From positions 89,131 through 153,130 of the IMG/VR virus record IMGVR_UViG_3300032092_000004: a DNA stretch of 64,000 nt, one strand, 5' to 3'. The notes beneath the pieces are model-generated. The model was not told where the DNA came from and searched no databases. It worked only from the letters and a program-made list of their open reading frames with translations. The translations under genes were made by a program, and so were the position numbers. The DNA comes from a virus. Positions 2,679 to 64,000 of the stretch are shown piece by piece (position 1 is the stretch's first letter; each line of letters starts with the position of its first letter).

Positions 2679-5234
2679 CTAACTATTTAACCCATTTCCA
2701 CCCAAAAGTACAGCGTTCATTTGAGTTACAGAACCACCATTAAGACCTATCCAAACCGGATGTGGAACACTCACCAATGAAGCACTTCCATCACAAATAA
2801 GACAGTCAATATATTCGGTGTTTGCACTGATAGGTATAACATAACCATTACATATTTCACATTCTGAGAAGAGTTCTAATGCGGTATATTCTGATTCAAG
2901 AGGAACACTCAAAAGACCGGTAAATTTATATGCGTTTAAATTGGCGATTTCAGTAAAATTACCACCAACCAATATATTACCATTTGATTGTAATTTTATT
3001 GAATAAATTTCTGAGCCTTGGTTAAATCCACTACCAACGTTAAAATTTGTATCTATAGATCCATCTGAGTTTAATCTTACTATTTCACCTTCAGATAAAC
3101 CATTGTATGAATTAAAAGGACCACCAGCTAAGATTTTTCCATCTGATTGTAATGCTGATGCATAAACATTACCAGCAAATCCACTACCAATAGAAAAACT
3201 AGAATCTATTGATCCATCAGAGTTTAATCTAATAATTCTATTTCTGGATGACCCACTATAAGTTGTGAAAGTACCCACAACTAATATTTTTCCATCCGAC
3301 TGAACTTCAATATCCCAAACAATACTGTTAAATCCGGTACCAACAACAAAACTAGAATCTATTGACCCGCCTGTGTTTAATCTAATAATCCTATTAATAG
3401 ATACACCACTATATGATGTAAAATTACCACCAACTAATATCTTCCCGTCTGATTGTATGTTAATTTTAAATACCGAATTGGCCGTAAATCCAGTACCAAT
3501 AACAAAACTAGAATCTATTGATCCATCGGTATTTAATCTAACTATACAATTTCTACTTACACCACTATAAGAAGAAAAATAACCCCCAACTAATATTTTC
3601 CCATCTGTTTGTATTTCAATACTATTTACATTACTAGTAAATCCTGTACCAATAGAAAAACTATTATCGATAGATCCATCGGTATTTAATCTAACGATTC
3701 TATTTTTAGTCACACTACTATATGATGTAAATAGACCACCAACTAATAACTTTCCGTCTGATTGTGGTGTAATTACGGTAACTCGGTTATTAAATCCGGT
3801 ACCAATAACAAAACTAGTGTCTACTGTATAGTCGGTGTTTAATCTAATAATCCTATTTATGGATACCCCACTATATGATGTAAAATCACCACCAACTAAT
3901 ATTTTTCCATCTGTTTGTGTTTGAATAGCCCATACGGAACCATTAAATCCAGTTCCAATATCAAAAAGAGGGTTTATATTGTTGAACGATTCATTCAATG
4001 CCTCGTAACATCTAAAATCTGTCGTGTATAATATTGGGTTATTATCTAAAGAATCTAATTGACAAATACGATTGCAAAAATATCCATTAAATTTTGTGAA
4101 GGAACTACCACCAACAATTATTTTTCCGTTTGAATTTGTCACAAACGAAATAACACTACCGTCAAACCCGAAGCCAGTTACAAAACTAGAATCTATTGAT
4201 CCATCAGAGTTTAATTTAATAATTCTATTTTTAGATACCCCACTATACGTTGTGAAATCACCACCAACTAATATTTTTCCATCCGACTGAACTTCAATAT
4301 CCCTAACATTATTGTCAAATCCAGTTCCAATAACAAAACTTCCATCTTTGCCACCATTAGAGTTTAATCTAACAATATAATTATCAATTGATCCACCAAA
4401 TGTTATAAAATTACCACCAATTAATACCTTCCCGTCTGATTGTAATGCAATTGAAAAGACGGTAGCTTCATCTATACCGGTACCACTATTCCATGATACG
4501 TCTCTTGTTCCATCTGAATTTAATCTTACTATACCAGAACCAATATAAGCTCCATTATATTGAGTAAATCCACCACCAACAATTATTTTTCCGTCTGGTT
4601 GGTATTGAATTGCGAAAACAGATCCATCACCCCCTTCACCATAAGTATTATAAAATCCTGAACCGGTATTAAATGTATTATCTATCGATCCATTAGTATT
4701 TAATCTTATTAAACTCGCACCTACTGATACCCCACTATAAGAAGTAAAATAACCACCAACCAATATCTTTCCGTCCGATTGTAACTCAAGATCATAAGGG
4801 GGTAAATTCAAACCGGACCCAATACTAAAACTGTTGTCAATAGACCCGTCTGTGTTTAATCTAATGATATAATTTCTGGCAACACCACTATACGATGTAA
4901 AACCACCAACAACTAATATTTTCCCATCTGTTTGTACTTCAATATCACTTACATACGATGTAAAACCACTTCCATTAACAAAACTATCATCAACAGAACC
5001 ATCAGTATTTAATCTAACAATATAATTTTTGGCAACACCACTATAAGAAGTAAAATAACCCCCAACTAATATCTTCCCGTCTGATTGTAACTTTACACTA
5101 TTAATTTGATTGTTAACCCCAGACCCAATATCAAAACCAACATTTGGAATACCTGGTAATGGAATCGATAAATCCCCTCCATCAATATATTTGTTTTCGC
5201 CTGTTAGGCAAGATTCGCAGTAGTATGTACTCAT
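2679..5234 (-). CDS. Delta-60 repeat double beta-propeller protein (probable virion/adhesion protein)
   Basis: 14 repeats of Q.DGKILVGG.FT.Y.G...N.I.RLN.DGS.D.SF arranged 7+7. Confidence 0.85.
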   Translation of the reverse strand: MSTYYCESCLTGENKYIDGGDLSIPLPGIPNVGFDIGSGVNNQINSVKLQSDGKILVGGYFTSYSGVAKNYIVRLNTDGSVDDSFVNGSGFTSYVSDIEVQTDGKILVVGGFTSYSGVARNYIIRLNTDGSIDNSFSIGSGLNLPPYDLELQSDGKILVGGYFTSYSGVSVGASLIRLNTNGSIDNTFNTGSGFYNTYGEGGDGSVFAIQYQPDGKIIVGGGFTQYNGAYIGSGIVRLNSDGTRDVSWNSGTGIDEATVFSIALQSDGKVLIGGNFITFGGSIDNYIVRLNSNGGKDGSFVIGTGFDNNVRDIEVQSDGKILVGGDFTTYSGVSKNRIIKLNSDGSIDSSFVTGFGFDGSVISFVTNSNGKIIVGGSSFTKFNGYFCNRICQLDSLDNNPILYTTDFRCYEALNESFNNINPLFDIGTGFNGSVWAIQTQTDGKILVGGDFTSYSGVSINRIIRLNTDYTVDTSFVIGTGFNNRVTVITPQSDGKLLVGGLFTSYSSVTKNRIVRLNTDGSIDNSFSIGTGFTSNVNSIEIQTDGKILVGGYFSSYSGVSRNCIVRLNTDGSIDSSFVIGTGFTANSVFKINIQSDGKILVGGNFTSYSGVSINRIIRLNTGGSIDSSFVVGTGFNSIVWDIEVQSDGKILVVGTFTTYSGSSRNRIIRLNSDGSIDSSFSIGSGFAGNVYASALQSDGKILAGGPFNSYNGLSEGEIVRLNSDGSIDTNFNVGSGFNQGSEIYSIKLQSNGNILVGGNFTEIANLNAYKFTGLLSVPLESEYTALELFSECEICNGYVIPISANTEYIDCLICDGSASLVSVPHPVWIGLNGGSVTQMNAVLLGGNGLNS

Positions 5235-5572: not shown

Positions 5573-6778
5573 ATGAGAGACTTCATTAAAAATTTCTTAT
5601 TAGAACAAGATGAGAATCTTGTCACACTAACTCCTGATCAATATACAGAAACATTAGAGGATGTTGGAGGTATTGCAGCAAGAGTTGCAAATCTCAAACC
5701 TTATCGTGGTAAGGGTATTGTTATTAATGGTGGTTTAGATCTTAGAAAATTTAAAAACATTGGTCCTTTAACTGGCGTTGTTAGAGTTATGGGACGATTA
5801 GACATATCTAATACGAATATTTCAAATCTTGATGGAACTAAGGTAGATGGGTATGTTAGTAGTTGGGGTTCAACAATGCATACAAATAAATTAAAACAAG
5901 AAAGAAATAAAAAACTTTCAGAATTAGCCGATTATAGAGAAGATGATGAATGGAATATTGAAAATAATGATGATGAATCTGAAAGAACTGAAGCGTTATA
6001 TGAATTCTTAGTTGAAGAAGGTATTCCTACCTTATATGAAGACGACAATGGTGATGAAATAGAAGAAGATAAATATTTTATTTATCCAAATGGTACTGGA
6101 AATCACGGTATTGGAAAACAATACGAATGGTTAGGTGGTGGAACTTTACAACCTGACACATATGATGTTTATACTCAAGACGAGTTAGATGTTGCGGCTA
6201 AAAGATATGTTGAAAGATCGGTTGATGACATGGGTTATGATGCATTCTCAAGTTGGGTTTGGGATCAAGCGATTAATAAAGGAGAGTGGCAAAGTTGGTT
6301 AGATGATTTTTTTGAAGATATAGTTAGAGTTGATCCTGAACATTATGATATAGGACTTGAATTATCTAAAAATCAACAACATCAAGTTAATCAATTAACA
6401 AAAACTATAGAAAATCTAAATAATAGATTAGAAAAAGAGGAATTGTCTGACGAAGAATTCGAAAACATCGAAAGAAAAATTGAAGGTTTAGAAGAGACAA
6501 TAGAAGACATCAAAGAAGATCCACAAGGTGGTTATGATGAAAGTTCTATACAGAATGAAATCAATGATAGAGTTAATGAATATGTTGATGATATTGATGA
6601 GTTTATCAAACATTACGGTTATGAAAGTAGTTTTATAATGGATTTTGTTGATTTAAATGAAGTAACTGACATTGTAGTTAATAGTGATGGGTATGGTAAT
6701 TTATTAAACTCACATGATGGAGAAATGTTTGAAACAAAGGTAAATGACGATTGGTATTTTGTAATGAGAGCTGGTTAG
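5573..6778 (+). CDS. Hypothetical acidic protein with N-terminal tag and coiled coil
   Basis: 401-aa ORF; starts MRDFIKNFLLEQ; TATTTAT at 5561. Confidence 0.75.
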   Translation: MRDFIKNFLLEQDENLVTLTPDQYTETLEDVGGIAARVANLKPYRGKGIVINGGLDLRKFKNIGPLTGVVRVMGRLDISNTNISNLDGTKVDGYVSSWGSTMHTNKLKQERNKKLSELADYREDDEWNIENNDDESERTEALYEFLVEEGIPTLYEDDNGDEIEEDKYFIYPNGTGNHGIGKQYEWLGGGTLQPDTYDVYTQDELDVAAKRYVERSVDDMGYDAFSSWVWDQAINKGEWQSWLDDFFEDIVRVDPEHYDIGLELSKNQQHQVNQLTKTIENLNNRLEKEELSDEEFENIERKIEGLEETIEDIKEDPQGGYDESSIQNEINDRVNEYVDDIDEFIKHYGYESSFIMDFVDLNEVTDIVVNSDGYGNLLNSHDGEMFETKVNDDWYFVMRAG

Positions 6779-34186: not shown

Positions 34187-36094
34187 ATGAAACAATTAAG
34201 AAGTCTGTTATTTGGACTTTTATTTTTATTACCATTCATTGGTAAAGCTCAAGTACCTGCGGCCCCTTCAAACGGATTGTGGGGAATTATTGCATCCCAA
34301 TATCAAGTTGGGACAACCGCACAAGGCACAACAGATGCGAAGATTACATTACAAAACACAACCCTTACAAAATTTGCGGGGGTACAGTTTAGAGTATTCT
34401 ACGATAATGTAGCGTTTACAAATGCAACCGTATCTCTTATCGGATCATCAACAAACTTAGACCTTCAGTTTATCACCAACACAACAAATGGTTACATTAC
34501 CATTACTTTGGTTTATACAGGTCCAAGTGCGACTTATACGATTCCAAATGGTGAGAGATTTTTAATTACCTTTACTCACGCACCAGCAGCAACATTTAAT
34601 AACTTGGCGTCTATTTCCAACTTAACTTGGACAGGACCTCAGTCTTTTACACCATATGCTGCTAAACAAGATGGTATGGATACCACATTAAGTGTTCATA
34701 ACTATGGTGGTGTGTTCACACCTGTTAACTTCGACTATCATGGAACATTCACTAATGTTACAGGTACTTCGGCTAAATATTTAAATTTAGCATTAGAAAG
34801 AAGACCATTCGGTGGAAACACTTGGACACAACATTCTACTTATGTTACAGATATCAACGGAGACTTCAATATTTCAGTTCCATTGGACACAACATATTGG
34901 GATGTAAGATTAGCGATTCAAGGAGACACTATGGGTGTGGGTAATATTATTTCATCAACAGATGCTCAGTTGATTAATCAGTGGGTTCTTGGAAACGGTA
35001 CCATGACTGGTTTTGATTATTATACAGCAGATGTTAACGGATCTAATAACACAACAATATCTGATGTGTGGGGTGTATTTGGTAGAATCTCAGGTAGATT
35101 TACTCAATGGCCTAACAACACAAAAGATGTTAAGTTCTTTACAGCATCTGAATACACAACTATTAACGGATCTGTAACTAACTACACATCAACAATTGCA
35201 GGTGTAACAAACTTTACATTTGATATCTTACCGGGTCAACCTGACTCTGTAGTTTATTATGTAATGGTTCCTGGTGATGCCAACGGAACAGGTTATCATA
35301 TGGCTCGTGTAACTCCTATCGAAGTATTGGTCGGACCAATACCAGGTTTAGAGTCACAAATTTATAATGTAATCGACACCAAAGTTGAGTATGATTTCCC
35401 AACTTCAACAATTGAAGTTAATGTACCTAACATTTCTGTAGATGCAGGAAACTTGGTTGAATTACCAGTTAAAGTTTTTACAAACGGAGAAGTGTTATCA
35501 TCACTTCAGTTTGGATTGAAATACGACACTGACCTATTAGAATTTAAAGGTGTGTATTCTTCATCAAATGCTATGGAATGGATTACATATGTAAATCCAA
35601 ACGATGGTCAAGTTGATTGGGGTGGATTTGATCCTACAAATAATGAACAACCATTAGTGAATGGGGATGAGGTTGTGACTCTACAATTTATTGCTAAACA
35701 ACCACAGAACCTATGGGAAGAAAGTCCTCTTTACACTTCTTTGAAGTTTGCGGGAACGACACAATCTAAAGATCTAACAATTACACCAACAAATGGAATC
35801 CTTCAAGTATTAAAAAGTAATATGGGTGAAGTAGTTGGGAATACAATTTCAGTAGTCCCTAATCCTGTTATTGATGAAGTAACAATTTCATTTGAAGTTA
35901 AAGAAACAACAAATGCAAATCTATCAATTTCAGATGTTGTTGGAAGAAAGTTAATTACGATCTTGGATGGTCAATTACCTAATGGAGAGTATAGCTATGT
36001 TGAGAACTTAGGTAGTTTAGATAGAGGTCTTTACTTAGTTACATTAAGTATGGAAAACGGAGAAACAAAAGTTTCAAAAATTGTAAAACAATAA
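34187..36094 (+). CDS. Secreted cohesin/dockerin protein with T9SS type A C-terminal sorting domain
   Basis: Signal peptide GKA|Q; two cohesin-like domains; ADVNGSNNTTISD dockerin; VPNPV...GLYLV...SKIVKQ CTD. Confidence 0.8.
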   Translation: MKQLRSLLFGLLFLLPFIGKAQVPAAPSNGLWGIIASQYQVGTTAQGTTDAKITLQNTTLTKFAGVQFRVFYDNVAFTNATVSLIGSSTNLDLQFITNTTNGYITITLVYTGPSATYTIPNGERFLITFTHAPAATFNNLASISNLTWTGPQSFTPYAAKQDGMDTTLSVHNYGGVFTPVNFDYHGTFTNVTGTSAKYLNLALERRPFGGNTWTQHSTYVTDINGDFNISVPLDTTYWDVRLAIQGDTMGVGNIISSTDAQLINQWVLGNGTMTGFDYYTADVNGSNNTTISDVWGVFGRISGRFTQWPNNTKDVKFFTASEYTTINGSVTNYTSTIAGVTNFTFDILPGQPDSVVYYVMVPGDANGTGYHMARVTPIEVLVGPIPGLESQIYNVIDTKVEYDFPTSTIEVNVPNISVDAGNLVELPVKVFTNGEVLSSLQFGLKYDTDLLEFKGVYSSSNAMEWITYVNPNDGQVDWGGFDPTNNEQPLVNGDEVVTLQFIAKQPQNLWEESPLYTSLKFAGTTQSKDLTITPTNGILQVLKSNMGEVVGNTISVVPNPVIDEVTISFEVKETTNANLSISDVVGRKLITILDGQLPNGEYSYVENLGSLDRGLYLVTLSMENGETKVSKIVKQ

Positions 36095-54997: not shown

Positions 54998-55720
54998 ATG
55001 AAATTAAATGAACTAGTAACAATAGTAATTCCTTGTAAAAATGAGAAGAGAATTATTGAAAAGACGTTGGATCTTTTAAATTATCAATCAGACATTTTGA
55101 ATGTAAAAGTTGTTGTTTGTGATTCATCTAATGATGGTATTACAAAACCATATCTTTTGGATAGATTGGAATATGATTCAGGAAGAGACAGATTTGATCT
55201 ACACATAATGGAGGGAGGACTTCCCGCAAGAGCAAGAAACAACGGATTCAAACTTGTGACAACACCCTATGTTTTATTTATGGATGCAGATGTGTTTCTA
55301 TTGGATCCTAAAATAATTAAAAGAGCGTTTCTTCGAATACATAAAAACCATTTAGATTTAGTGACCGCTAAGTTCAGAAGTGATAACGGTAAATACAACT
55401 ATATTTACCGTTTGTTTGATTTTTTACAGTTAATATCAAAGTGGTCAACACCATTTTGTTTGGGTGGATTTATGATGGTTAGAACAGAAACATTTAAAAC
55501 ACTAAAAGGTTTTGATGAGGAGATTAAAGTTGCAGAGGACTATCACTTTTCAAAACAGGTCAAACCAAAGAAATTTGGTAGAATAAATAACGTAGTTTTT
55601 ACACCACCAAGAAGATTTGAAAACAAAGGATTAATTTACATGACTAAATTGTTCTTGGGGTCATTCTTTAACCACAAAAACAAAGACTACTTTACTAAAG
55701 ATCAAAACTATTGGAAATGA
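54998..55720 (+). CDS. GT2 glycosyltransferase
   Basis: IVIPCKNE, ARNNG, FMDAD, GFDE...AED. Confidence 0.85.
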   Translation: MKLNELVTIVIPCKNEKRIIEKTLDLLNYQSDILNVKVVVCDSSNDGITKPYLLDRLEYDSGRDRFDLHIMEGGLPARARNNGFKLVTTPYVLFMDADVFLLDPKIIKRAFLRIHKNHLDLVTAKFRSDNGKYNYIYRLFDFLQLISKWSTPFCLGGFMMVRTETFKTLKGFDEEIKVAEDYHFSKQVKPKKFGRINNVVFTPPRRFENKGLIYMTKLFLGSFFNHKNKDYFTKDQNYWK

Positions 55721-56430
55721 AAAAGTGGAAGACAGTAATAATGAGTGATCTTCATTTAGGGGCAAGACAATCACAAACAGATAAGATATTAAAGTTCTTA
55801 GAAGAAAATGAAATGGAAACTTTAATATTAAATGGGGACATAATCGATGGGTGGGCAATCAAAAGTAACGGTAAATGGACCAATGAATGTACCAAAATAA
55901 TAAGAAAGATAATCAAACTATCTGAAGGTAAAACAAAAGTGGTATATATTAGAGGAAATCACGATGACTTCTTAAAAGACTTTATTCCATTTCAATTAAA
56001 CAATATTGAGATTGTTAGAATGTATAATCACATTGGAGTTGATGGAAGAAATTATTATTGTTTTCATGGTGATGTTTTAGATTTTGTTATTATGAAAGCA
56101 AGATGGTTGGCAGTTGTTGGTGGGTGGTCTTATGATTTTGTTATTAAACTAAACACAATCTATAATAAAATTAGAAAGACTTTCAAATTGAAGTACCACT
56201 CATTGGCAAATGATATTAAACAATCTGTTAAGGGTGCGATTAACTTTGTTTCTGATTTTGAAACAGGAGCTAAAGGACTTACACAAGAGAAAGGGTATGA
56301 TGTTGCGGTATGTGGTCATATCCACCAACCAAAACTTGAAGTTGATTATATGAACTCAGGTGACTTTTGTGAGAACTCTACATGCCTTGTCGAAGATAAA
56401 AAAGGTAATTGGAAAATATTAGAGATATAA
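55717..56430 (+). CDS. LpxH-like (UDP-2,3-diacylglucosamine hydrolase family) metallophosphoesterase
   Basis: SDLHLG, NGDIID, GNHD, HGD, CGHIH, NSGD. Confidence 0.82.
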   Translation: MKKWKTVIMSDLHLGARQSQTDKILKFLEENEMETLILNGDIIDGWAIKSNGKWTNECTKIIRKIIKLSEGKTKVVYIRGNHDDFLKDFIPFQLNNIEIVRMYNHIGVDGRNYYCFHGDVLDFVIMKARWLAVVGGWSYDFVIKLNTIYNKIRKTFKLKYHSLANDIKQSVKGAINFVSDFETGAKGLTQEKGYDVAVCGHIHQPKLEVDYMNSGDFCENSTCLVEDKKGNWKILEI

Positions 56431-56524
56431 TTTTTTCTTAACACACATCAATTCATTTTCAATTTACATGTCGAAATAAAAGAATTATCTTTTGAAAAGA
56501 AAATAAACCAATAACAATATAAAA

Positions 56525-57076
56525 ATGAAACAACTTGTAATTGATCCAGCTCATTCTGACTTGGGATTTAAAATCAGACACTTGATGGTGTCAAACGTAA
56601 AAGGAACATTAACAAATTATTCAGGTGGTATGTCTTATACTACTGAAGATATGAGTGACGCTCAGATTCGTTTTGAGGCTGAAGTTAACTCAATTTCAAC
56701 AGGAAATGGAGACAGAGATGCACACCTTAATGGAGAAGACTTCTTCAACACGGATAGATTCCCTAGAATGTATTTCGAATCAACTCACTTGAATCTTACT
56801 GACGGTAAAATGAAAGGTGAAATGACTATCAAAGACACAACTAAAACTATTGATTTAACTGTTGAGTATAATGGTAAATCAGTTGATCCATGGGGTAACA
56901 CAAAACACGGATTTGAGATCTCAGGAACTATTAACCGTTCAGACTTTGATCTTACTTGGAATGCGGCACTTGAAACAGGTGGTGTATTGTTGAGTGATGA
57001 GGTTAAACTGAATTTGGATGTTCAGATGATGGAATTGGTTGGTGAATTAGAACCACAAACTGAAACAGCAGAATAA
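56525..57076 (+). CDS. YceI family lipid/isoprenoid-binding protein
   Basis: IDPAHS..GFKIRHLM, RDAHL, DPWGN, INRSDF. Confidence 0.9.
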   Translation: MKQLVIDPAHSDLGFKIRHLMVSNVKGTLTNYSGGMSYTTEDMSDAQIRFEAEVNSISTGNGDRDAHLNGEDFFNTDRFPRMYFESTHLNLTDGKMKGEMTIKDTTKTIDLTVEYNGKSVDPWGNTKHGFEISGTINRSDFDLTWNAALETGGVLLSDEVKLNLDVQMMELVGELEPQTETAE

Positions 57077-57105: not shown

Positions 57106-57133
57106 AATCCCCACTCAAAAGGTGGGGATTTTT
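57106..57133 (+). terminator. Intrinsic terminator
   Basis: AATCCCCAC-tcaaaag-GTGGGGATT followed by T run. Confidence 0.8.
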
Positions 57134-57157
57134 CTATTACTAAAGTATTTATATGTA

Positions 57158-58111
57158 ATGAAAAATCTTGTTAGATCAATCCTTAATGAAGTTTACCAAC
57201 AACAAAACAAACCTGACTTAATTAAAGAATGTACAATTGCTGCGGTAAGATTGGATGACACCGTAGTTTTAGCAAAAAACAGAGATAGAGGTTACAAGGC
57301 TAGAGTTGAAATTATTCATGAGATTGTGAAAGATGTTGAAATGGTTTATTGGAGAGATATTGATACTGATTGGAGTGAGGGAATGAATGAATTTGGTATT
57401 GGTATTGTAAATTCTAGTTTGATGGTTGCCCAAGATGAGAAAGAAGGTAAAGGGGTTGAAAAAGAAAGAAAGATTGATGATAAAACTAAGGATAAGACCG
57501 AAAAGAAAAGATTTGCCGCTGATGGAGGTAAAATAAGAAAGGCTTTAACTTATAAAACTTTACCTAAAGTAATTAAATCTATAATTTCTTACAGAGGTGA
57601 AGATAAAAAAGATGTGGGACTCAAAGGAGAAACAATAGTCTCAAATAACGAAAATATTTATATAGTTGAGATGACCGCTAAACATTCTCCAATAATTAAA
57701 AAATTAAAAACTGACTCTAAAATTGTTGTAAGAACAAACCATGGAATTTATCAAAAGAGTGCTGGGTATACTCATGGTAGAAAAAGAAAATCTTCTGTAA
57801 CTAGAATGGAATTGGCAAAAAAACACTTAGAGGGTGTTAAAAAAGACATAGATGTGATTGATGCGATGAAAAAGAAATACAAGAAAGATCCATTTTTAAA
57901 TCCATATAGAACAAAGAACATGTATCATATGCAAACAACAGGTCAAATAATGATGAATCTTGACAAAAAACTTGTTGTTGTTAGAATGGATAATGATATG
58001 GGAGAGTTTGTTGGTATCCAAACAAAACTACCAAAAGATTACGAACCAAAAATTAAAATAAGAATAGAGGGTGAAAAAACCCATGATAAAGGCAAAAAAT
58101 TACCAACGTAG
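57158..58111 (+). CDS. Tagged Ntn-hydrolase-like protein (Cys nucleophile at residue 25)
   Basis: CTIAA...LAKNRD, EGMNEFGI, RTNH. Confidence 0.7.
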   Translation: MKNLVRSILNEVYQQQNKPDLIKECTIAAVRLDDTVVLAKNRDRGYKARVEIIHEIVKDVEMVYWRDIDTDWSEGMNEFGIGIVNSSLMVAQDEKEGKGVEKERKIDDKTKDKTEKKRFAADGGKIRKALTYKTLPKVIKSIISYRGEDKKDVGLKGETIVSNNENIYIVEMTAKHSPIIKKLKTDSKIVVRTNHGIYQKSAGYTHGRKRKSSVTRMELAKKHLEGVKKDIDVIDAMKKKYKKDPFLNPYRTKNMYHMQTTGQIMMNLDKKLVVVRMDNDMGEFVGIQTKLPKDYEPKIKIRIEGEKTHDKGKKLPT

Positions 58112-59796
58112 TGAAAAATTTAATTAAAAGAATATTAAAAGAAGAAACAAAATCACTTTTGACAGAAGGTGGTATTCGTGATATCAAGAATCTTGCTAAA
58201 AGATATAAAATGGCTAAGATCTACTTTCACCTTGATTTAGATGGTGTTACAACTGCTTTGGCAATGAAACATTATTTAGAAAGAAATGGTATTAAAGTGG
58301 TTGAGGCCGAACCAATTCAATACGGAGCAAAAGAATTCGCAGTTAAAAAACCTGAAGGCGAAGGTGAAATTATGCCAGTTCTTGTGGATTTTGCTCATGG
58401 TAAACCAATGTTTGTTATTCATACAGATCACCACGATACACAAGCCGGAGTTGAAGGAGATACGTCAACAAGCTTCAAGTCTGCAAGATCAAACGTCGAA
58501 ACAATCTCACAAACTGTATCTCCATCTGAGATCTTTACTCCTGAAGATGTTGAAACAATTTCAATCGTTGACTCCGCTGATTTTGCAAAACACGACATCA
58601 AACCAAGAGACGTTATTAATTACCTATTCCAAATAGATAGAACCAAAGGTTTTAAAGAAAACAAAAGAAAAATGGGTCTTGTTGCTAATAAACTATTATT
58701 GGCATTTAAGAATAAACCTGGTTTCTTAAGTGATATTGTATTAAATGCTCAACCATCTTTACTTAGTATCTTGATGAACATCAAAGATCAGATGCAAAAG
58801 AAAGGATATGCGACTTTAGATAAGTTAGAACAAAATAAAGAAGCCTACATTGAGTCAAGAAAGAAAGAAGGTGCGGTCCAATACTCTGATGGAGTTATTA
58901 GTCAATATGGTTTTGGTTCTACGATGAAACCAGGATCTTATGATCGTTATACACCATTCGAAAATTATCCTGAAGCTGATTTCTTAGTAACAGGAATGCA
59001 TTTAGGGATGGTTCAAGCATCTTGTAACCCATACAAGAAAGATAGAGCACTTAAAGGTGTTAACTTAGGTGAAGTTAAAGATGAGGTTTTAAATAAAATG
59101 TCATCAGAATTAGAAAATATAAAAGTAACTTTTGGTGATCTTAAAAGAGTTGGTGAACAAGAGGCTGAGTTTGGTTCTGTTGGATTCACATTGAAAGACT
59201 TCATGGCAATTTATGGTAATGCTCCTTCATATAAACTTGATGGTAGTAAAAACACTTTAGAAATTATTGGAAACATTTCTCAAACCTTATATAGAAAACT
59301 AAGTGATAGACAAAGAGATGTGTTAGATAAAATAACAGTCAATGGTTTAGATGTGATTAAAGCAAACTCAGGTGGTCACAAATGTATTACTAATATTTCA
59401 GGAATAAATTTCTTATTGAGAGATAGAAAAGCTCGAACCAACACTGAGGTTGAAACCATTTCTGCTGAACTACAACCAATTGCCAGTTATGAAGGAAGTA
59501 ATGACTTTGTTAAAGATATCAAAAGTAAGTTATTAAGATTTGGTAGTATTTCTGACAAACAAAAAGATGCCGCAATGAGACAAATTAATAAAGAAGGTAC
59601 TTGGTCTAAAGGTGAAGTTGAGAGACCTAAAAAAACATTTGTTGATTTGGTCAAACAAATACAAGAAGAATTTGTTTCAATTTTAAAAGATAAAATAAAA
59701 TTGTCAGGCGATGAAAGATCCGAACCTGAATTAGAAATAGAACTTGAAGAGCAATTGAGAAGAATTACCAAAAAACAATTATCTTCAAGAATCTAA
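58111..59796 (+). CDS. Tagged DHH-family phosphoesterase
   Basis: HLDLDG, LVDFA, TDHH, late GGH. Confidence 0.72.
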   Translation: MKNLIKRILKEETKSLLTEGGIRDIKNLAKRYKMAKIYFHLDLDGVTTALAMKHYLERNGIKVVEAEPIQYGAKEFAVKKPEGEGEIMPVLVDFAHGKPMFVIHTDHHDTQAGVEGDTSTSFKSARSNVETISQTVSPSEIFTPEDVETISIVDSADFAKHDIKPRDVINYLFQIDRTKGFKENKRKMGLVANKLLLAFKNKPGFLSDIVLNAQPSLLSILMNIKDQMQKKGYATLDKLEQNKEAYIESRKKEGAVQYSDGVISQYGFGSTMKPGSYDRYTPFENYPEADFLVTGMHLGMVQASCNPYKKDRALKGVNLGEVKDEVLNKMSSELENIKVTFGDLKRVGEQEAEFGSVGFTLKDFMAIYGNAPSYKLDGSKNTLEIIGNISQTLYRKLSDRQRDVLDKITVNGLDVIKANSGGHKCITNISGINFLLRDRKARTNTEVETISAELQPIASYEGSNDFVKDIKSKLLRFGSISDKQKDAAMRQINKEGTWSKGEVERPKKTFVDLVKQIQEEFVSILKDKIKLSGDERSEPELEIELEEQLRRITKKQLSSRI

Positions 59797-59798
59797 TT

Positions 59799-60080
59799 CT
59801 AACCCATACTCTTTAGGACCATCTCCAAAGTGTAGATGGAATCTTTATCTTGTTTAGTCTTAACCTGTTTAGACTTCAGATATTCCAAACTTTGTAATAC
59901 CTCTTCCTTTTTAGATTTAGGATTTTGAGTAGAGTTATTACTCTGAGTTTTTTTAACCACTGAAAATGATTTTTTTTGAGGAACTGATTCATTACCTAAA
60001 AATTCTCTAACTATTTCTAAAGACTTGTCAGGGTTCCAAGTGAACATATTTACCAAAATGTAAGCGAATATCTTTTTCAT
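59799..60080 (-). CDS. Hypothetical protein
   Basis: 93-aa ORF; TATCTTTG 4 nt upstream on the minus strand. Confidence 0.6.
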   Translation of the reverse strand: MKKIFAYILVNMFTWNPDKSLEIVREFLGNESVPQKKSFSVVKKTQSNNSTQNPKSKKEEVLQSLEYLKSKQVKTKQDKDSIYTLEMVLKSMG

Positions 60081-60119
60081 ACTACAAAGATAATGAAAAT
60101 AAATGATATTTATAAAAAT

Positions 60120-61526
60120 ATGAAAAATCTGATTAGAAACATTTTGAAAGAAAAGGTGTCAACAAAATCAAAACAATTGATTTACGAGACCGAGAGAGAG
60201 TTAGATGAGAGGGGTAGACCAAGATTGTATTCTGATGAGGAAATTTTAAGTCGTGCTTGTCAATATACAAATCAAAGAGATTTTGAAAAAGGAAATGATA
60301 AAAATTATTTTTATTTAGCTAAGAATAGAAAATTATTACCCACAATTAGATTACAATGTAATTACGTACCACTTGGAAATGCTTACAGTAGGATGTTATA
60401 TATGTATATATGGGAAAAAAATGTAAGTGCTGTTTATTTTGGACTCACTTGTGATGAAGAGAGAAGATATGAAGAACATACACGTTTAGAACAACAAATT
60501 TTAAATAATGCAGACGTTAAACCAAGTTGTAAAGTCGGATCCAATTCTGCGGTTAAAGAGTTTATTAAAAAAAATGGGATTCATGATAGATATGTAATGA
60601 TTTCTGATGGTTATATTGATGCAGTTCAAGCGGCACTTGCCGAAAGGTGTTTAATTGACCACTTCAAAAATGATGATGAGTGGAAAGGTAAGATAGAAGT
60701 TGTTAACAAAAGTAAGGGTGGTGAATTGGGAGGAAGATGTCCCGCGAATGCAAGACGAATGGCCCAAGATGTAAAATTAATTATGGATAATCAAATAAAT
60801 ACACCTGAGGAATTTCAATTAAATTATCCTGTTGAATATGAATATTGGTCAAGAGACAAAAACAGACAAAGAATAATAAATCAAGGGTTGAAAAAAAGAT
60901 TTTTTTCAGATGCCCCATATTCGAAAGAAGAAATACTGAATATAGTTTCAAATTACGACAATTTGGATGAATTTAAAAATGAAAACCGAAGAGCCTTTCT
61001 TTCTGCGAAGAGAAATAAAATGATAGAAATTCTGTACCCTGAGGATAATGTTTACTTCAACCCAAACACAAATAAAACTTATGAATCATTGATTAGTTTA
61101 AATAAAGATTTAAATAAAAATTTCAAAGATTTATATAATGATTTTTTAAGAGGTCAAGGCGAATTGGATTATGGAATTATAACAAAGAAAAAAAACGAAA
61201 TTAACGAAAATATTTTAAGAAGAATTATAAAAGAAGAAACCGAAGAGATTAACCAAAAGGTCATGAACTTCCTTCTGAGAAGACATGAGATCAATGAGAT
61301 TAATATTGATGATCAAATTAAATTTAAAGAAGTATACTTCAAGGTAGGAGATGACTATTATGGGATATCAATGTGGGATAGTAAAAAAAGACAAGTAAGA
61401 CTTATTTTGAATATGTTAGAAGAAAACAATGTTATTGAACCAATTGATAACTTCTCAAACGAAAACGATCCATACAGACAAAAAGTTGTTAGAACAATTA
61501 AAAAGTTTTTATCTGAAATAATGTAA
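60120..61526 (+). CDS. Tagged GIY-YIG-like nuclease fused to a second tagged domain
   Basis: MLYMY...VYFGLT....RRYEEH...E...N..KGG; internal INENILRRIIKEE. Confidence 0.6.
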   Translation: MKNLIRNILKEKVSTKSKQLIYETERELDERGRPRLYSDEEILSRACQYTNQRDFEKGNDKNYFYLAKNRKLLPTIRLQCNYVPLGNAYSRMLYMYIWEKNVSAVYFGLTCDEERRYEEHTRLEQQILNNADVKPSCKVGSNSAVKEFIKKNGIHDRYVMISDGYIDAVQAALAERCLIDHFKNDDEWKGKIEVVNKSKGGELGGRCPANARRMAQDVKLIMDNQINTPEEFQLNYPVEYEYWSRDKNRQRIINQGLKKRFFSDAPYSKEEILNIVSNYDNLDEFKNENRRAFLSAKRNKMIEILYPEDNVYFNPNTNKTYESLISLNKDLNKNFKDLYNDFLRGQGELDYGIITKKKNEINENILRRIIKEETEEINQKVMNFLLRRHEINEINIDDQIKFKEVYFKVGDDYYGISMWDSKKRQVRLILNMLEENNVIEPIDNFSNENDPYRQKVVRTIKKFLSEIM

Positions 61527-61963
61527 TGAAAGAGTTGATTAGACACATATTGAAAGAAGAAACTGAGGTTTCAGATCCAAATACAAAAGGAATAGATCTT
61601 GCAATTAAGTTTCTTAAAAAATCATATCCTTACATTATTGGGTGGGAAATTAATGATGAGCGTACATATACAATATACCTTAATATTATCTGTGATATTG
61701 AAAAACTAAAAGAGTTTTATAATAGTGATTTAAAGAATTATTATTTAAGACACAAAGATGATATATATAAAGATATTTTAGCATATCCACATTCAGTTTT
61801 AAAAATAAGTGAAACTATGGATCCAGATGAAAAGTACAAAGAGTATAGTGAAATGAAACAGGAATTAAACGATATATATCAAATGCTTCCTGAACATTTA
61901 ATTATAAATGATAGACATAACGAACCCAAAGAATTAGATCCTGACAAATTTATATATAGATGA
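61526..61963 (+). CDS. Tagged hypothetical protein
   Basis: MKELIRHILKEE. Confidence 0.7.
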   Translation: MKELIRHILKEETEVSDPNTKGIDLAIKFLKKSYPYIIGWEINDERTYTIYLNIICDIEKLKEFYNSDLKNYYLRHKDDIYKDILAYPHSVLKISETMDPDEKYKEYSEMKQELNDIYQMLPEHLIINDRHNEPKELDPDKFIYR

Positions 61964-62394
61964 AAAAGTTGATTAAACATATATTAAAAGAAGACGAGGG
62001 AAACAATCTTGAACAAAGATTTAGAAACTCAATGCAAAAACTCCAATATATTTTTGAAAGTCAAGTTTCATCTCATATTGACTCTGTCGAAATAAGTGAA
62101 ATTGAATTTGACCCTAAATATACTGAAATCCAAGCAAAACTTACGGTTAAATCATATTATGAAGACCATGATTTTGGTTCACTTGCTAAACACATTGATA
62201 GATTAGAAGATGAAGTTTATAAAATTCAAGGAAAATACACATTCACAGAAAACGGTGGTTTGATTAAAAGAGGTCCCGACCATGATTGGATTATGAGTTG
62301 TATACCAATTGGTATGAAATGGCAAGCTGGTGGTGAAGAATCATTTCTGTTAATTTTAGAATTTTGGATAAGACAAGAGGAATACGATGCGTGA
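61960..62394 (+). CDS. Tagged hypothetical protein
   Basis: MKKLIKHILKED. Confidence 0.7.
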   Translation: MKKLIKHILKEDEGNNLEQRFRNSMQKLQYIFESQVSSHIDSVEISEIEFDPKYTEIQAKLTVKSYYEDHDFGSLAKHIDRLEDEVYKIQGKYTFTENGGLIKRGPDHDWIMSCIPIGMKWQAGGEESFLLILEFWIRQEEYDA

Positions 62395-63026
62395 TGAGAA
62401 ATTTAATTAAATTGATATTAGAAGATGAGGTTAGTAGAAAATATGCTAAACCTACACCAAAATTAGAACAAGTTGTTTATAGATGGTTAAACAACTATTT
62501 TGATGGTGTGCAAATGTATTATAAAAAATCTTATGAATCAACACATAGTTTTGATTTTTGTAAAAACGGAAGAGAAATATTGGATGTTGTTTTATATTTT
62601 GGTAATGATGATGACGACAATAAAAAAACTGAAGAAATGAGTTTTAATAGGGGTTTAATGAGAGTCCCAAAAAATGTATTTGATGATTTAACCACAGATC
62701 TTCCTATGAGAGTAAGTTATTTAAGATACCTTCTTGAAGAATGGTTCGATGACACTTACTTAGGTGAAATTCAAAAAAAGATGGGTAGAAATGATATTTA
62801 CATTTCCGAACTTTATATAACTAATTACGACGGTGATATTTGTTTTCCACCGATAACAAAACCTGATGATGTAACTGAGGAGGAAATGATAGAAGATATT
62901 CTTAAAGCGGGAAAATATAAAATGAAGGATATATTGTGGTGGGAAGAGAGATCGCCAGGATGGATTGAACAAACTTATTTAGAACAACTTAATGGTGCTG
63001 AATACAGAAGATTAAAAGGACAATGA
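62394..63026 (+). CDS. Tagged hypothetical protein (paralog of next gene)
   Basis: MRNLIKLILEDE; EEWFDDTYLGEIQ.KMGRNDIYISE shared. Confidence 0.75.
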   Translation: MRNLIKLILEDEVSRKYAKPTPKLEQVVYRWLNNYFDGVQMYYKKSYESTHSFDFCKNGREILDVVLYFGNDDDDNKKTEEMSFNRGLMRVPKNVFDDLTTDLPMRVSYLRYLLEEWFDDTYLGEIQKKMGRNDIYISELYITNYDGDICFPPITKPDDVTEEEMIEDILKAGKYKMKDILWWEERSPGWIEQTYLEQLNGAEYRRLKGQ

Positions 63027-63664
63027 GAGAACTGATTAGACATATCTTAAAAGAAGAGGTTAATAAAAAATACAAAAAACCTACACCAAAGGTAGAACAA
63101 CTTGTTTATAGTTGGTTAAACAAGTATTTTGATGGGGCTACAATGTATCATGACAAATCGTGGGAAACAAGACATGATTTTGAATGGTGTAATTATGGAA
63201 AAGAAATAATGAGTTTTATATTATTTTTTGAAGATAATAATGATGTTTATGACGATAAAAGAAAAACTGAAGAAAGAGATTTTGGTTCAGGTTCAATTTA
63301 TATCCCAAATGATATATTTAAAGAGTTGATGTCCGATATTCCTGTAAGAGTAAGTTACTTAAAATACCTTTTTGAAGAATGGTTTGACGACACTTATTTA
63401 GGCGAAATTCAAAGTAAAATGGGTAGAAATGACATCTATATTTCTGAATTTAATATAAATGATAAAGATGCTCAAACTTGTGTTCCACCAATAACAAAAT
63501 CTGAAGATGTAAGTCAAGATGATATCATAGAACTTGTTCTTAAAACCACACTGTTTAAAAGAGATGATTTATTAAGACGAGAAGAAGAGGAACCAGGGTT
63601 TATAGAGAAAATTTATTTAAATAAACTTCGTGCTGCAGAAATAGACAGATTAAGAGAAGAGTAA
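63023..63664 (+). CDS. Tagged hypothetical protein (tandem paralog)
   Basis: MRELIRHILKEE; collinear with 62394..63026. Confidence 0.75.
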   Translation: MRELIRHILKEEVNKKYKKPTPKVEQLVYSWLNKYFDGATMYHDKSWETRHDFEWCNYGKEIMSFILFFEDNNDVYDDKRKTEERDFGSGSIYIPNDIFKELMSDIPVRVSYLKYLFEEWFDDTYLGEIQSKMGRNDIYISEFNINDKDAQTCVPPITKSEDVSQDDIIELVLKTTLFKRDDLLRREEEEPGFIEKIYLNKLRAAEIDRLREE

Positions 63665-64000
63665 TGAGAGAACTAATCAGACATATCTTGAAAGAAAATA
63701 GACTCCAACAAGAGTTGAAACAAGTTATCAAAGATGGTAATATTTTTGACGCTGCGGACTTGGTTGGTGGAATCCAACCACTCAAAAGAATATTCAAAGA
63801 CGATCCTGAAATGAGTTCTTTATTTGATAAACTAACAGGGAGGATTATTTTTGATTATTATGTGAATAAAGAACATATAGAATTTCCTTTAGATTATGAA
63901 ATAATTGGTAGAAAGAGTAATAATCATAAGACTAATCATTGGCCTGAAATAAACGTTCTTTATGATGAAAATAAATTAACACCCGAAGAAAATGATACTT
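63664..64000 (+). CDS. Tagged hypothetical protein, 3'-truncated by window edge
   Basis: MRELIRHILKENRLQQ...; open to the end of the window. Confidence 0.7.
   Translation, partial: MRELIRHILKENRLQQELKQVIKDGNIFDAADLVGGIQPLKRIFKDDPEMSSLFDKLTGRIIFDYYVNKEHIEFPLDYEIIGRKSNNHKTNHWPEINVLYDENKLTPEENDT

Follow-up and report, generated by a model that had tools for sequence, protein, structure and literature searches.

The 64,000-nucleotide stretch analysed here (the window; positions 89,131 to 153,130, that is, the 3' 64 kb of the 153-kb IMG/VR virus record IMGVR_UViG_3300032092_000004, which has a completeness estimate of 49%) comes from a giant T4-like lake phage and carries a gene for the precursor of a predicted Cys-type N-terminal nucleophile (Ntn) hydrolase, in which the tripeptide I22-K23-E24 immediately precedes Cys25, the putative catalytic residue. 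We consider it probable that the head protease of the phage cleaves this junction in trans and thereby unmasks Cys25 inside the prohead. This reading draws on the fold of the protein, the equivalence of Cys25 to known nucleophiles, the conservation of the junction, the protease and the capsid-protein site found in relatives, and the leaders shared with other genes (Table 1).

The sequence-only reading of this DNA had named a Cys-type Ntn hydrolase with a Cys codon directly after I-K-E and three typical motifs, all of which are present in the sequence (K40-N41-R42-D43, G75-M-N-E-F-G80 and T193-N194-H195), and the assignment was borne out by matches to Pfam AAT within the family, by Foldseek and by VIA-align. 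Each of the three motifs holds invariant or nearly invariant columns in an alignment of 79 family sequences, where K40, R42, D43, G75, N77, G157, N194, G203 and R216 are invariant and Cys25 is nearly so (present in at least 90% of the members). The AlphaFold2 (AF2) model of the window protein (pLDDT 87.4, pTM 0.85) has a helix at residues 2-17, a disordered segment at residues 18-22 (pLDDT <50) and a strand that begins at Cys25. Foldseek returned 88 PDB matches at E <= 0.001, and all those listed are Ntn hydrolases with the four-layer alpha-beta-beta-alpha fold. VIA-align gave Z scores of 16-20 over 200-240 residues against NAAA, acid ceramidase, IAT, the bile salt hydrolase BSH and penicillin V acylase (PVA); the alignment to the mature chains starts exactly at model residue 25, which pairs with Cys126 of human NAAA, Cys143 of acid ceramidase, Cys103 of IAT, Cys2 of BSH and Cys1 of PVA. 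This fold and this pairing mark the window protein as a predicted Cys-type Ntn hydrolase with Cys25 as its nucleophile. The closest folds are those of lipid-amide and small-molecule amidases, and the bond cleaved in the substrate would be an amide.

Among the 79 aligned members, 47 matched Pfam AAT (PF03417; MEROPS C45) at E <= 0.1 with a best value of 8e-10, one giant member of the family reached 25.0 bits (Pfam cut-off 23.2), and 3 of the 79 matched TANGO2. The window protein searched alone gave nothing in Pfam at E <= 0.01 and no usable match in PHROGs, and a profile of the 79 members had no match at E <= 1 among PDB chain sequences. The family reads as a sister family within the AAT clan rather than as a clear AAT member. 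It also appears virtually confined to viruses, two scans of 185,579 species genomes for cellular homologues having returned only 2 contigs from metagenome-assembled genomes; a language-model search gave a weak lead to CBAH/AAT-like "conjugal transfer proteins" of Bacillota.

Homologues were gathered by a word-indexed search (787) and by an exhaustive representative search (454), and 250 members were typed at the junction, with P1 as the residue before the nucleophile. The window phage alone is uninformative in this respect: [IL]xE precedes 6 of its 520 Cys residues against 6.5 expected, which is the chance level, and the significance of the junction therefore comes from its conservation and from Cys25 being the structural equivalent of the Ntn nucleophile. 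In class E (n = 164) P1 is Glu in every member and never Asp, P3 is I, L, V or M in 163 members (I 92, L 53, V 15, M 3) and T in 1, and P2 takes 15 residue types. In class A (n = 68) P1 is A/S/G and P3 is K/R in 68/68, with P2 free, while the proteins of class M (n = 17) begin with Met-Cys; one typed member lies outside these classes and has Gln at P1. The class-E rule holds in members reaching down to about 35% domain identity and for propeptides of 4 to more than 300 residues (Met-Ile-Asn-Glu before Cys, for example), and the same junction is found in the Chryseobacterium phages MA9V-1 (gene MA9V1_182) and MA9V-2 (41-43% identity), the sole relatives in culture. The expectation that homologues would keep (I/L)xE before Cys thus proved right, in the form of an (I/L/V)xE that is invariant across the whole T4-like clade. 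Taken over the entire family, the position before Cys is not constant (E, A/S/G or Met), but its variation follows strict, lineage-specific classes. On a tree of 175 domains these classes form clusters, with 5 changes where 3 would be the minimum, and class M arose on at least two occasions within the class-E clade, among phages that carry the gp21-type (MEROPS S77) prohead protease.

Previous studies showed that T4 gp21 cuts after Glu in L/I-X-E, and that in the 10-residue capsid targeting sequence (CTS) of T4 IPIII residues 8 and 10 (P3 and P1) govern processing, with Asp at P1 blocking it (PMC9026906). We found that Pfam S77 and gp23 are encoded by 7/7 class-E genomes with a completeness of at least 90%, and by most large fragments, and that the S77 protease is present in both MA9V-1 and MA9V-2. 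In the 290,710-bp IMG/VR relative G001, whose Ntn protein is 85% identical to that of the window, the gene order is T4-like (portal, core, protease, scaffold, capsid), and the protease is 33% identical to T4 gp21 (E 1e-17), with the ELNHP and SSRG segments of T4 aligned. When 11 capsid proteins of class-E phages were aligned with T4 gp23 (from AF158101), (L/I/V)xE was kept in 11/11 at the column of the T4 site L-T-E65/A (cut after Glu65). Because the capsid proteins keep this motif at the T4 site column and the protease is of the gp21 type, the specificity of the head protease is very probably conserved in the class-E clade.

The propeptide of the window protein holds two T4-type protease consensus sites, L-N-E11 at the end of the leader and I-K-E24 at the junction. 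The leader is found on at least 8 consecutive open reading frames (ORFs) at 57158-64000 and on an ORF at 5573, and a search of the six-frame translation of the window with the leader pattern gave 9 matches, 7 of them at ORF starts, all within 57158-64000. Among orthologues the leader changes: the Ntn proteins carry type 1, 2 or 3, and the Ntn and DHH-like orthologues taken together (the DHH-like protein is described below) carry type 1, 2, 3 or almost none, so that the leaders appear to be swapped as modules. A block of about 50 kb in G001 (about 197-248 kb, loci L292-L295) consists of dozens of small to mid-size ORFs with four stereotyped leaders, and [LIV]xE occurs within residues 2-15 in 40/73 genes of the block vs 60/249 genes elsewhere. 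Further, a consensus site upstream of the junction was present in 98 of 111 distinct Ntn propeptides, compared with 64 +/- 5 in shuffled sequences (maximum 79, 2000 shuffles), with residue 11 as the usual end of the first such site, close to residue 10 in T4.

The gene that follows the Ntn gene begins with a GTG that overlaps the Ntn stop codon, is predicted to be translationally coupled to it, and encodes a DHH-like protein with the same leader. This protein has more than 3700 homologues, some of them fused to GNAT, SET or peptidoglycan-binding domains, and one source labels a homologue as an NrnB-type oligoribonuclease/cyclic nucleoside monophosphate phosphodiesterase. At the border between leader and domain, 68 distinct N-termini of the DHH-like homologues had Glu at P1 (68/68) and L/I at P3 (68/68), the leaders being 7-37 residues long, of type 1, type 2 or nearly absent, and ending before a conserved S/G-G-I-R. 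The homologues share at least 58% identity and conserve P4 as well, which makes the series weaker than that of the Ntn proteins. The same L/I-x-E rule in a protein that is not an Ntn hydrolase means that the motif is no peculiarity of Ntn self-cleavage; the rule would not be specific to Ntn chemistry, which argues against the motif as a by-product of such self-cleavage. The DHH-like protein is a possible second enzyme cargo.

Class A comes from nine records of high-GC giant phages that are not T4-like. Many of its members, and some of class E, are domains of polyvalent proteins of 500-2800 aa with RNA ligase, topoisomerase IB, polyA-polymerase head, HAD, LigT or Fe/Mn superoxide dismutase domains as partners; in the class-A examples P0249, P0204 and P0154 (loci L111-L119) the Ntn domain always comes after (K/R)-x-(A/S/G). 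Searches of the class-A records with Pfam models for S77, S78, gp23, the HK97 capsid and S21 found none of them, and ClpP was found in two records only; a single S21 match (E 0.035) was discarded as spurious because it overlaps the Ntn gene itself on the opposite strand. No shared leader was found in the class-A phage G018, and in G015 a similar leader occurs on at least 4 other ORFs, in a genome whose composition makes (K/R)x(A/G/S) too common to discriminate. The (K/R)x(A/S/G) junction may be the site of another protease. A general rule, by which the junction of this phage-only family would track the head-maturation protease of each lineage, with (L/I/V)-x-E in T4-like phages with S77 and (K/R)-x-(A/S/G) in the high-GC giants as marks of a maturation-gated cargo, is a tentative idea in which we place less than even trust. 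If it held, the enzyme would be the first of the Ntn hydrolases to owe its activation to a foreign protease rather than to itself, and its junction would offer a readout, from sequence alone, of head-protease specificity in uncultured phages.

For the window phage we propose the following course. The precursor would be made late in infection with its 24-residue N-terminal propeptide, of which residues 1-11 would act as a helical leader like the CTS of T4, a leader apparently put on many unrelated phage proteins and here followed by a variable spacer. The leader would bring the precursor into the prohead core, where the S77 protease would act on (L/I/V)-x-E, cutting behind the Glu of both L-N-E11 and I-K-E24. 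Ntn hydrolases are inactive until the nucleophile is N-terminal with a free alpha-amino group, and because catalysis needs this group, the cut at E24, which would leave Cys25 at the N-terminus, would in one step free the cargo from the core and activate the enzyme. The active amidase would then be carried in the capsid and would probably reach the next host along with the DNA. It is from the genes and their relatives that we infer packaging, cleavage, ejection and the point at which the enzyme becomes active.

The proposal that the head protease opens the zymogen has to be weighed against a precursor that processes itself, which we judge unlikely while granting it real weight. Here E24-C25 would be cut by an intramolecular N-to-S acyl shift, the mechanism of IAT, penicillin V acylase, NAAA and acid ceramidase. 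The role of Glu at P1 and of the hydrophobic residue at P3 would be to support that reaction or to hold the propeptide in the cleft of the active site, and the head protease would remove at most the leader (at E11) or have no role. Several points count for such a precursor and against opening by the head protease. As a rule, Ntn precursors that have propeptides cleave themselves, and to our knowledge every known Cys-Ntn precursor with a propeptide (IAT, PVA, NAAA, acid ceramidase) cleaves itself. In precursors of this type an outside protease has poor access to the bond. Structures of such precursors rank among the best matches of the model, and AF2 places residues 22-24 like P3-P1 of the self-processing precursors 6dxw, 5u81 and 2iwm, a geometry that the modelled fold would lead one to expect anyway. 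The second strict rule, (K/R)x(A/S/G), occurs in phages without a detectable S77, so that strict constraints at P3 and P1 might be intrinsic to the Ntn family. The junction class follows phylogeny: with no more than 5 switches of class on the tree, the co-occurrence of class E and S77 counts as one or two evolutionary events and not as an independent correlation; a statistical link between junction class and protease was therefore rejected as independent evidence. Three further points weigh against the head protease. Neither an S77 protease gene nor a gp23 capsid gene was found on the window contig, which at 49% completeness reads as incompleteness of the record and not as absence from the phage. 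A virion proteome of the cultured relatives MA9V-1 and MA9V-2 was sought and none was found, the MA9V-1 paper giving only sodium dodecyl sulfate polyacrylamide gel electrophoresis. Finally, Met-Cys forms exist in S77 phages, so the leader and the gating are dispensable for the enzyme. The claim of the sequence-only reading that the enzyme is switched on only inside mature virions was thus too strong as an absolute need of the enzyme, and its idea of activation in trans was partly supported.

What tells against self-processing is the pattern at the junction. All three classes share their catalytic residues, yet P1 is Glu in one and Ala/Ser/Gly in another, and P3 hydrophobic in one and basic in another; one shared self-cleavage chemistry does not predict such switching between classes. 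The class-E rule is exactly that of T4 gp21, including the lack of Asp at P1, the same rule appears at the leader border of the DHH-like protein, which is no Ntn hydrolase, and at the capsid-protein site, and the propeptides hold surplus consensus sites. It is very improbable, in our judgement, that the protein is no capsid cargo at all, with a leader serving partner assembly, localisation or translation efficiency and a protein that stays uncut (and non-catalytic) or is cut by a host protease in the infected cell. The leaderless Met-Cys forms show that a leader is not required for the enzyme to work, presumably in that case in the cytoplasm, and the leaders are rich in A and K, as N-termini in AT-rich genomes often are; however, 7 of the 9 leader-pattern matches in the window are at ORF starts, the leaders are predicted to be helical and end in a protease consensus like the CTS of T4, the conservation of all catalytic residues makes an uncut, inactive end product unlikely, and we know of no host protease with (L/I/V)xE specificity. 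A small remainder of the probability belongs to readings that we have not formulated, and cleavage in trans by the head protease remains our favoured explanation.

Compared with known Cys-Ntn enzymes, the window protein resembles IAT (2X1C/2X1D), NAAA (6DXX), acid ceramidase (5U7Z) and PVA/BSH (C59) in its modelled fold, in the position of the nucleophile and in having a propeptide or linker that must go before activity, but it shares only 9-16% identity with them in structural alignments and belongs to a family virtually confined to phages. These known enzymes have Gly-Cys, Phe-Cys or Ile-Cys at this junction, unlike the hydrophobic-x-Glu of the window protein. Its leader, in turn, is of a kind known from T4, where the capsid targeting sequence of IPI, IPII, IPIII and Alt is removed by gp21 (Mullaney and Black 1996, reviewed in PMC9026906). 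As in the T4 internal proteins, a short leader of about 10-11 residues with a Met-Lys start and an L/I-x-E end is put on unrelated proteins; IPII and IPIII have a 10-residue CTS, and IPI has a 19-aa propeptide ending in I-T-E, much like the leader plus spacer of the window protein. The relatives of the window phage also encode a protease of the gp21 type and a capsid protein of the gp23 type in which this site recurs, and T4 Alt is a precedent for an enzyme cargo. Unlike T4, the leader sequence is different and comes in several interchangeable types, and the cut in the Ntn precursor would create a catalytic N-terminus, so that removal of the tag would also activate the protein.

Head-internal proteins of phiKZ, 201phi2-1 and SPN3US (gp175/gp245) are cut after Glu at S/A/G-x-E by a distant relative of gp21 and have redundant propeptide sites (PMC9026906). 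The surplus consensus sites of the Ntn propeptides are alike, whereas P3 here is I/L/V, as in T4, and not S/A/G, and the phages are T4-like with gp23 and not phiKZ-like. The class-A and some class-E multi-domain members share the architecture of the polyvalent proteins of phages and conjugative elements, which are thought to be passed on together with the DNA (Iyer, Burroughs, Anand, de Souza, Aravind 2017, PMC5512222), whereas the Ntn protein of the window stands alone. The terms "N-terminal nucleophile", TANGO2 and NRDE are absent from the text of that paper, and a literature search on jumbo phages, prohead protease zymogens and phage Ntn hydrolases found no paper on such a junction or on a coupling of tag removal to activation.

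If the favoured reading is true, capsid maturation also arms an enzyme when it is sealed in the particle; the enzyme would thereby do no harm to the cell that produces it and yet be ready on arrival in the next host. Activation by a heterologous protease would be a new route for Ntn hydrolases, and the short list of T4-like enzyme cargo would grow. Moreover, a residue that must be N-terminal would pin the cleavage to one bond, and the leaders of hundreds of uncultured jumbo phages could then be read as cleaved capsid-targeting tags. The Ntn family itself has hundreds of members, and the lipid-amide and small-molecule amidases closest to it in structure make it a candidate for a role in host takeover or entry.

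Table 1. Features of the Ntn hydrolase locus in the window.
Feature	Position	Strand	Basis or remark
Terminator-like hairpin with T-run	57106..57130	+	10-pair stem, 5 G-C pairs, T tail
TATTTATA motif, putative late promoter element	57146..57153	+	4 nt upstream of Ntn ATG
Ntn hydrolase precursor gene, 317 aa (predicted)	57158..58111, stop codon included	+	ORF (ATG 57158, TAG 58109-58111), 787 homologues, AF2 model
Leader, residues 1-11, type-1 tag, ends L-N-E	57158..57190	+	shared by ORFs; predicted helical
Spacer, residues 12-24, ends I22-K23-E24	57191..57229	+	length and sequence vary among orthologues; pLDDT <50 at 18-22
I22-K23-E24	57221-57229	+	immediately before Cys25
Mature Ntn hydrolase domain, residues 25-317 (predicted)	57230..58108	+	family alignment, Pfam AAT matches, Foldseek, VIA-align
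Cys25 codon TGT, predicted N-terminal nucleophile	57230..57232	+	structural alignment
K40-N41-R42-D43 motif	57275-57286	+	
G75-M-N-E-F-G80 motif	57380-57397	+	
T193-N194-H195 motif	57734-57742	+	
DHH-like protein, 561 aa	58111..59796	+	same leader, L-T-E junction; GTG start overlaps Ntn TAG stop

The start of the Ntn gene was placed at the ATG at 57158, since a GTG at 57122 that would give a longer protein sits within the terminator-like hairpin and close homologues start at the ATG; this longer start was rejected. The opposite (minus) strand of the ORF region holds short chance ORFs only. The hairpin would close the upstream YceI-like gene and separate it from the Ntn gene. Between hairpin and start codon stands the TATTTATA motif; its core TATTTAT, which was the pattern searched, stops 5 nt short of the ATG. 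This core lies within 45 nt upstream of 36/176 genes, including large tail genes and other leader-bearing ORFs, and in G001 it stands in front of the genes for the prohead core, protease, scaffold, capsid and Ntn proteins. In both the window phage and G001 the longer form (A/G)TATTTAT(A/T) was found 4-20 nt upstream of many structural genes and leader-bearing ORFs. As a motif in AT-rich DNA it is suggestive only, a candidate late promoter unlike the TATAAATA of T4. The window has a G+C content of 32%, and no tRNA genes were found in it.

Downstream of the Ntn and DHH-like genes, six more ORFs in a row have the same 11-residue leader (starts 60120, 61526, 61960, 62394, 63023 and 63664, all +). 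A 477-aa ORF at 60093 (+) carries a second leader in its interior (near 61212), as a fusion of two tagged genes would, and its true start may be the Met at 60120. In the leader block of G001 a second recurrent motif, (F/I)LLRR(V/F/L)D, lies close to several N-termini.

Upstream of the Ntn gene, at 54998-57076 (+), are genes for a family-2 glycosyltransferase, a calcineurin-like metallophosphoesterase and the YceI-like lipid-binding protein. A YceI-like gene is also close to the Ntn gene in G001, and LpxD-, KpsF- and GlmU-like genes are close to the Ntn copy of MA9V-1; this neighbourhood may reflect envelope-lipid biology or, equally, mere synteny. Elsewhere in the window, an 850-aa DUF5122 beta-propeller protein is encoded at 2679-5234 (-), and a 635-aa protein at 34187-36094 (+) combines a cohesin domain with a C-terminal sorting domain of the type IX secretion system, a predicted signal that points to a Bacteroidota host.

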